Origin: Escherichia coli
GTDB lineage: Bacteria; Pseudomonadota; Gammaproteobacteria; Enterobacterales; Enterobacteriaceae
Assembly (NCBI RefSeq): GCF_003334355.1
Contig: NZ_QOWP01000058.1
Reading direction: 5' to 3' (one strand)
Length of the DNA: 9,806 nucleotides
Under the pieces are notes generated by a model, which was not told the origin of the DNA, ran no database searches, and worked only from the letters and a program-made list of their open reading frames with translations. A program made the position numbers and the translations under genes. The number at the start of each line of letters is the position of its first letter. The first letter of the stretch is position 1. Shown here one piece after another: positions 8,876-9,099 of this stretch.

Positions 8876-9099
8876 ATTGATATCAACAATACCATTTACA
8901 TAAATCTACATTAATTGATAGATGCGATAAATAGTTAATACTCTTAAATATTTGTTGTATTTATATTGCAATGGTTAATTTGTTTTAAATCAATAAAACA
9001 ATGTGTTTACATTGCGGCAACTTTTTTGATGTGAGAAATTTGTTTCCAAGAGATACAGACTCTTAACAACCAAAAATAAATTTTATTAAGGAACATATT
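8876..9099 (+). promoter_or_regulatory. AT-rich upstream regulatory region of the yehD fimbrial operon (promoter not pinpointed)
   Basis: About 220 bp of strongly AT-rich, curved-DNA-like sequence with many A/T tracts immediately upstream of the yehD Shine-Dalgarno (AAGGA at 9088-9092). Confidence 0.35.

Follow-up and report, generated by a model that had tools for sequence, protein, structure and literature searches.

The yehE-yehD spacer of Escherichia coli raises the question of what the strongly AT-rich DNA in front of a fimbrial operon does, and whether it constitutes a silenced cryptic promoter as proposed in the first-pass annotation. Yeh is a gamma-4 chaperone-usher fimbrial operon and a textbook "cryptic" fimbrial cluster. 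The window (the whole stretch of DNA that was analyzed, 9,806 nt) was E. coli chromosome and identical to the complete draft contig QOWP01000058.1 of GCA_003334355.1, which breaks at IS copies on both sides. It carried on the minus strand a truncated yehI (ORF 40-1044), an intact WGR/DUF4132 gene of 1264 aa (1054-4848), and metG (4989-7031), followed by apbC/mrp (7154-8263), yehE (8526-8807, plus strand; 93 aa, identified by its ORF, the RefSeq annotation of identical DNA, and Pfam DUF2574), the 292-nt yehE-yehD spacer (8808-9099), and yehD (9100-9626, plus strand), coding for the major fimbrial subunit and lacking its last 16 nt compared with intact yehD. The annotation gave the neighbors as yehI, the DUF4132 gene, metG, apbC, yehE, yehDCBA, and then rcnB; the earlier gene call of yehD was correct, being an annotated fimbrial protein with yehE upstream. 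The intact gene of 1264 aa adjoins yehI, and its K-12 counterpart (molR) is presumably an annotated pseudogene. The spacer was identical to that of K-12 MG1655 at 291 of 292 positions, with a sole G/T difference at 8954, and experiments in K-12 therefore apply to it. The reading favored here, with a probability of approximately 0.8, is that positions 8808-9099 form a three-layer control region of the cryptic operon yehDCBA, comprising a terminator, H-NS, and a weak ArcA-repressed promoter.

The strong AT-richness claimed for the DNA upstream of yehD was borne out, as the 224 nt at 8876-9099 contained 23.7% G+C compared to 49.0% in the whole window (z = -3.8 against all 224-nt windows of the 9,806-nt stretch). 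The lowest 224-nt window had 23.2% G+C and started at 8790, all 224-nt windows with less than 30% G+C started between 8738 and 8955, and the whole spacer (292 nt) averaged approximately 24.7% G+C, compared to 33-42% in the other spacers of the window and 40-54% in its genes. The AT-rich zone begins some 60 nt to the left of 8876, taking in the yehE terminator, and its A+T content lies far above that of the flanks and the genome over at least 200 bp, as in H-NS-silenced promoters. The divergent metG/apbC spacer (7032-7153) was fairly AT-rich too, with 33% G+C. The description of the region as full of A/T tracts held for mixed A/T runs of eight or more bases, which were approximately six-fold enriched (seven of the 37 in the window lay inside the 292-nt spacer), but not for homopolymers, with only five runs of at least four. 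Of the AT-content and curvature profile proposed as a check, the AT-richness was confirmed while phased A-tract curvature found no support, since the 10-11 bp periodicity of AA/TT dinucleotides in the spacer did not exceed that of shuffled sequences and there is thus no sequence evidence for it. Orthologous spacers had 24-30% G+C in every species compared to 43-48% in their flanks, so that the AT-richness is preserved also across drifting sequence. Furthermore, Yeh has been published as an ancient, core-associated operon that 92% of strains carry intact and that shares synteny with Salmonella stc and Citrobacter; this argues for maintained AT-richness over a fresh import.

The left part of the spacer contained the intrinsic terminator of yehE (8837-8875, plus strand), made up of a perfect 36-nt palindrome (8837-8872) of which the 3' side of the stem runs into a T6 run (8870-8875). 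The RNA fold had an energy of -23.5 kcal/mol and z = -6.9, a value equaled by none of 200 shuffles, and four of the 18 predicted stem pairs displayed compensatory double changes across eight Escherichia sequences. The element was missed by a simple terminator scan; it combines a G+C-containing hairpin, a U-run, and a conserved structure as in Rho-independent terminators. With the terminator between them, yehE and yehD are transcribed as separate units, and the yehD promoter must therefore lie within the spacer. At its other end, the spacer closes with a Shine-Dalgarno sequence AAGGAA (9088-9093) and the yehD start codon (9100-9102; together 9088-9102, plus strand), both invariant across all aligned species.

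That this promoter is silenced by H-NS, as stated in the first-pass annotation for cryptic fimbrial operons including yeh, was supported by published K-12 data obtained on DNA that differs from the window by 1 nt. The yehD/yehE spacer is listed among approximately 78 "promoter islands" (U00096.2 position 2190229, 357 bp; PMC3661553, Table 1), where it is scored as bound by H-NS in the ChIP datasets of Kahramanoglou and Oshima and not in the ChIP-chip dataset of Grainger, and as overlapping predicted genomic islands. Anchored on the exact match of the ArcA site described below, the island 2190229_357 yehD(-)/yehE(-) corresponds to positions 8759-9115 of the window, an interval listed for K-12 by the Ozoline group and dense in predicted starts. 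Consistently, PMC5797941 counts yehDCBA among the cryptic chaperone-usher operons, marks it as H-NS-bound in the same two datasets, and gives a 3.6-fold increase of its transcript on SlyA overproduction, and the repression of the cryptic yeh operon by H-NS is credited to Korea et al. (2010) as cited in PMC5797941. In addition, yehEDCBA lies inside a silenced extended protein-occupancy domain, although removing the domain is not sufficient to switch on yehDCBA (2024 bioRxiv study), and BolA overproduction has been published to raise yehD and yehC. According to Low et al. (2006), as cited in PMC7098969, O157:H7 yeh promoter fusions were active in static LB and more so at 28°C, so silencing is not absolute, at least for the O157:H7 allele. 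H-NS is not the whole story, as ArcA also represses the operon and domain loss alone does not induce it.

The same published table contains the promoter islands yadN/folK, folD/sfmA, ssuE/elfA, ybgD/gltA, and yfcV/sixA, which like yehD/yehE are AT-rich spacers before the major-subunit genes of cryptic fimbrial operons. Most of them carry the H-NS mark in each of the three ChIP studies; for folD/sfmA, yfcV/sixA, and yehD/yehE the number is two, and several of the cryptic-operon islands are co-induced by SlyA or BolA overproduction. The yehD/yehE island differs by the missing Grainger signal and by having a published ArcA site and a cross-genus core, where cores were compared for yehD/yehE only. 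Salmonella stc and Citrobacter yeh share the chromosomal position and usher clade of E. coli yeh, and Citrobacter has kept the gene order apbC-DUF2574-spacer-yehD-yehC-yehB together with the 58-bp core.

Alignments of the spacer with divergent E. coli alleles, four other Escherichia species, Citrobacter, and Superficieibacter divided it into two parts. The left half (8808-8950) consists of the yehE terminator followed by a fast-evolving AT-rich stretch (8876-8950, no strand assigned) with 77-80% A+T in the AT profile. Identity over this half was 62-68% for the O157:H7 allele, E. whittamii, E. albertii, and Escherichia sp. E1V33, 82-85% for three closer sequences (Escherichia sp. MOD1-EC7003 and two further E. 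coli alleles), and approximately 40% in Citrobacter and Superficieibacter; every Escherichia comparison ranked it as the least conserved segment. The stretch 8876-8950 may serve as an H-NS loading or spreading zone. Two matches with two mismatches to the H-NS motif TCGATAAATT were found within it (8913-8922, minus strand, and 8924-8933, plus strand) and were not conserved; over the whole window the motif gave 15 matches compared to 9.9 expected, i.e., chance level.

The right half displayed the opposite pattern, with a control block (8951-9070, plus strand; single copy in the genome) conserved at 90-95% identity in the O157:H7 allele, E. whittamii, E. albertii, and E1V33. In the same four distant comparisons, yehE and yehD were 76-80% identical and third codon positions of yehD 56-59%, and the block exceeded both the coding sequence (Fisher p 2e-6 to 4e-3) and the distal half (Fisher p 8e-10 to 4e-6); for the closer Escherichia sp. 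MOD1-EC7003, the contrast with coding sequence was not significant (p = 0.069). Within E. coli, the block was at least 95% identical in 5,278 of 5,329 records (99%) with a median of one place per genome, and a search for diverged extra copies elsewhere in E. coli returned none but a few marginal plasmid matches of 73% identity. Judged from these alignments, the right half of the spacer is under strong purifying selection. The 311-nt query covering the whole spacer (8800-9110) had less than 95% identity in about 2,200 genomes, with 489 records in the 80-90% identity band. The O157:H7-type yehE-yehD allele was 78.7% identical to the K-12 type and 99.2% identical to a cryptic Escherichia species (E1V33), while the adjacent apbC was 99% identical to the K-12 type and the divergence started near 8350-8380; by its sequence, this allele looks to be either of an old class or part of a tract recombined between species.

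A 58-bp core of the block (8979-9036, plus strand) was recovered from the cross-genus alignments, being identical at 51 of 58 positions (88%) in Citrobacter and at 40 of 58 (69%) in Superficieibacter (UBA5654), with YehD protein identities of 67 and 60%, respectively. This core coincides with a published ArcA site. The supplement of Park et al. (2013; PMC3798270) reports a phosphorylated ArcA (ArcA-P) direct-repeat operator, AAGTTGCCGCAATGTAAACACATTGTTTTATTGATTTAAAACA, at 2190321-2190363, with 43 nt and a modest score of 12.3 bits. The operator matches positions 8981-9023 of the window exactly in reverse complement (minus strand), which places it in the middle of the core. Its repeats as published correspond to window positions 9009 (DR1), 8998 (DR2), 8987 (DR3), and 9020 (DR-1). 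The site has at least two TGTTA-like direct repeats at 11-bp phasing, as expected of an ArcA-P operator (7.5, 6.1, and 3.7 bits), and the repeats were conserved across species in the alignments. An ArcA ChIP-seq peak at 2190299 (window position 9045) was 3.9-fold enriched in one of two replicates and yehDCBA was 5.4-fold derepressed in an arcA mutant (p = 3e-5; PMC3798270), both in K-12, and YehD has been published among the ArcA targets of an independent SELEX-type screen. Two short palindromes were also present inside the block, namely CAATGTgtttACATTG at 8999-9014, overlapping ArcA repeat DR1, and AAGAGatacagaCTCTT at 9048-9064, which was invariant in the four other Escherichia sequences of one alignment and gave no significant RNA fold; in Escherichia sp. 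MOD1-EC7003, one of its loop bases differs.

Candidate promoters were sought with a simple promoter scan and a position weight matrix (PWM) scan scored against shuffled sequence, and neither scan gave a sigma-70 match in the spacer above the shuffle expectation. The best sigma-70-like match, TTGATA-16-AATACT at 8915-8942, lies in the variable half and was not conserved. Within the core, candidate a (8984-9013, plus strand) would have a -35 element TTTAAA (8984-8989), an 18-nt spacer, and a -10 element TACATT (9008-9013); it lies entirely under the ArcA repeats, and most Escherichia sequences and Citrobacter retained both hexamers, while Superficieibacter has CACATT in place of TACATT. It counts as weak evidence because its score of 9.1 is below the mean best score of the shuffles (10.7). 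Candidate b (9012-9040, plus strand) would have a -35 element TTGCGG (9012-9017), a 17-nt spacer, and an extended -10 element TGaGAAATT (9032-9040), with its TTG...TGA spacing kept in Citrobacter and Superficieibacter. Neither of these conserved candidates scored above chance in the PWM scan against shuffles, and searches of the spacer for IHF and SlyA consensus sites gave matches at chance level or none. A weak promoter is in line with yehDCBA reportedly staying uninduced when the occupancy domain is lost. Among the ArcA-repressed sigma-70 promoters of Park et al. (2013), the yehD site is one of the three-repeat sites, and the general model of that study is repression via overlap with promoter elements; compared to the other promoters, yehD is given as "no TSS" (PMC3798270) and has ChIP support from one replicate only. 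Our literature search found no mapped yehD transcription start, and the overlap of ArcA with the yehD promoter is putative. The hexamers and the start site assigned here are accordingly putative, and occlusion of the promoter may be the mechanism of ArcA repression.

In the three-layer reading, transcription of yehE would end at the strong terminator (8837-8875), leaving yehD dependent on its own promoter. H-NS would coat the whole 292-bp spacer of approximately 75% A+T and keep this promoter silent in laboratory growth, and the distal part (8876-8950) could drift freely in sequence provided that AT-richness stays. The proximal part (8951-9070) would hold a real and intrinsically weak sigma-70 promoter overlapped by three to four 11-bp-phased ArcA-P half-sites (8981-9023), at which phosphorylated ArcA would impose a further and specific repression when conditions are anaerobic or reducing. 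The counter-silencers SlyA, and BolA when overproduced, raise expression. The division of labor between a distal H-NS zone and a proximal promoter and operator is putative. It is also possible, though this is tentative, that the 58-bp core is a composite operator for ArcA and at least one further specific activator or OmpR/PhoB-type response regulator.

Phase variation is common among fimbrial operons, and an imperfect 15-nt inverted repeat (8872-8886/8984-8998, 87% complementary) brackets 97 nt of the spacer, so that a switch of the fim-like invertible or the pap-like Dam/Lrp type had to be weighed. The invertible switch fimS (the fimE/fimA spacer) is, like the yehD spacer, an AT-rich H-NS-bound promoter island before a major fimbrial subunit gene; it lies between 9-bp inverted repeats and is acted on by the FimB and FimE recombinases encoded next to it. 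The yehD spacer differs in the latter two respects. The first-pass annotation had seen neither flanking inverted repeats nor a nearby recombinase gene, and this holds: the imperfect repeat is the only one, its left arm was not conserved in other alleles, and a recombinase gene was absent from the window and the annotated neighbors. Moreover, full-length matches to an artificially inverted spacer query stayed at or below 87.9% across 5,324 genomes, compared to 100% for the native order, and the fim-like switch was rejected, confirming its earlier dismissal. A pap-like switch was rejected as well with zero GATC in 8628-9806, and the T6 run at 9022-9027 had a constant length in the alignments; a phase-variable element is thus extremely unlikely. 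The high conservation of the non-coding block and the presence of a 21-codon ATG ORF at 9001-9066 could instead point to a small RNA or leader peptide in place of protein-binding sites. This is very unlikely, as a permissive Rfam scan of 8300-9806 gave no family beyond chance matches on the terminator hairpin (far-sub-threshold eukaryotic miRNAs and snoRNAs), the RNA folds of 9020-9115 (z = -0.02) and 9046-9115 (z = -0.43) displayed no significant structure in the 5' UTR, and the ORF has no Shine-Dalgarno sequence and a frame broken in most other species (CAATATG shifts the ATG). In general, small ORFs were present in the spacer and were not conserved in the alignments.

Two further explanations were weighed. 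That the spacer is a relic retaining the composition of horizontally acquired DNA, with the terminator as its only regulatory content, would fit the flagging of the locus by the GIST and IslandViewer island predictors and a distal half that evolves faster than the neighboring genes. It is highly improbable for an operon that is ancient and syntenic across genera, and for which ArcA and H-NS binding are published; the proximal block, significantly more conserved than coding DNA and kept in Citrobacter and Superficieibacter, already contradicts it. More weight attaches to the proposal that H-NS coating is incidental and that the operon is quiet through a weak promoter needing a core-binding activator, together with ArcA repression. 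This would account for the failure of occupancy-domain loss to induce yehDCBA, the absence of a good sigma-70 match, the 5.4-fold derepression by arcA deletion alone, the H-NS binding missing from one of three ChIP datasets, and a 58-bp core conserved far beyond the needs of one degenerate ArcA site. It is nevertheless unlikely, given H-NS binding in the other two datasets, the repression by H-NS attributed to Korea et al. (2010) in PMC5797941, a transcript raised by overproduction of the known H-NS antagonist SlyA, and the AT-richness maintained where the sequence drifts.

The promoter probably drives a defective operon in this genome. The left end of an IS1 element (9627-9806, plus strand) was inserted into the 3' end of yehD, as identified by the terminal repeat at 9627, the annotation of an IS1-family transposase, and the InsA Pfam domain; the sequence GGTGATGCTGCCAACTTACTGAT at 9627 is taken to be the IS1 terminal repeat. 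The insertion replaces the last 16 nt of yehD and changes the C-terminus from ...VMRVAQD* in intact yehD to ...VMRVMLPTY*, generating a chimeric yehD-IS1 ORF of 182 aa (9100-9648). The same junction was found in 10 public contigs and was absent from all 5,426 complete E. coli genomes. Pilin subunits need their C-terminal strand to assemble, and an IS1 insertion is usually polar, so that this promoter is unlikely to yield productive Yeh fimbriae in this genome. At the other end of the window, the terminal 77 nt (1-77) belong to an IS4-like ISVsa5 element, presumably of the IS10 type, that cuts yehI, and of the 1210 aa of the protein, ORF 40-1044 therefore encodes just the N-terminal 334. The yeh operon was repeatedly damaged elsewhere, including an internal stop in yehB of O157:H7 Z1811, an IS1 in yehB of strain PSS-12, and an IS1 approximately 0.6 kb downstream of the insertion point of the window, apparently in yehC, in 31 genomes.

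Both roles of the region, as an H-NS-bound promoter island and as an ArcA target, were already on record, and the finding is real but ordinary because the AT-rich DNA is the documented H-NS-bound, ArcA-repressed control region of Yeh. As one of approximately 78 catalogued promoter islands, it has little significance beyond confirmation. What the analysis adds is modest, namely conservation that splits the spacer in two and a cross-genus core that falls on the ArcA site, and the practical point for this genome is that, with yehD disrupted by IS1, the promoter probably drives a broken operon. A drifting half beside a constrained half at the ArcA site speaks for regulation of the operon that is real and maintained by selection, and against its decay, and the 58-bp core provides a precise target for finding when Yeh fimbriae are made. 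If the core were a composite operator, Yeh fimbriae would be tightly conditional instead of "cryptic," made for example under aerobic conditions outside the host, and the factor binding the core would reveal their natural inducing signal.
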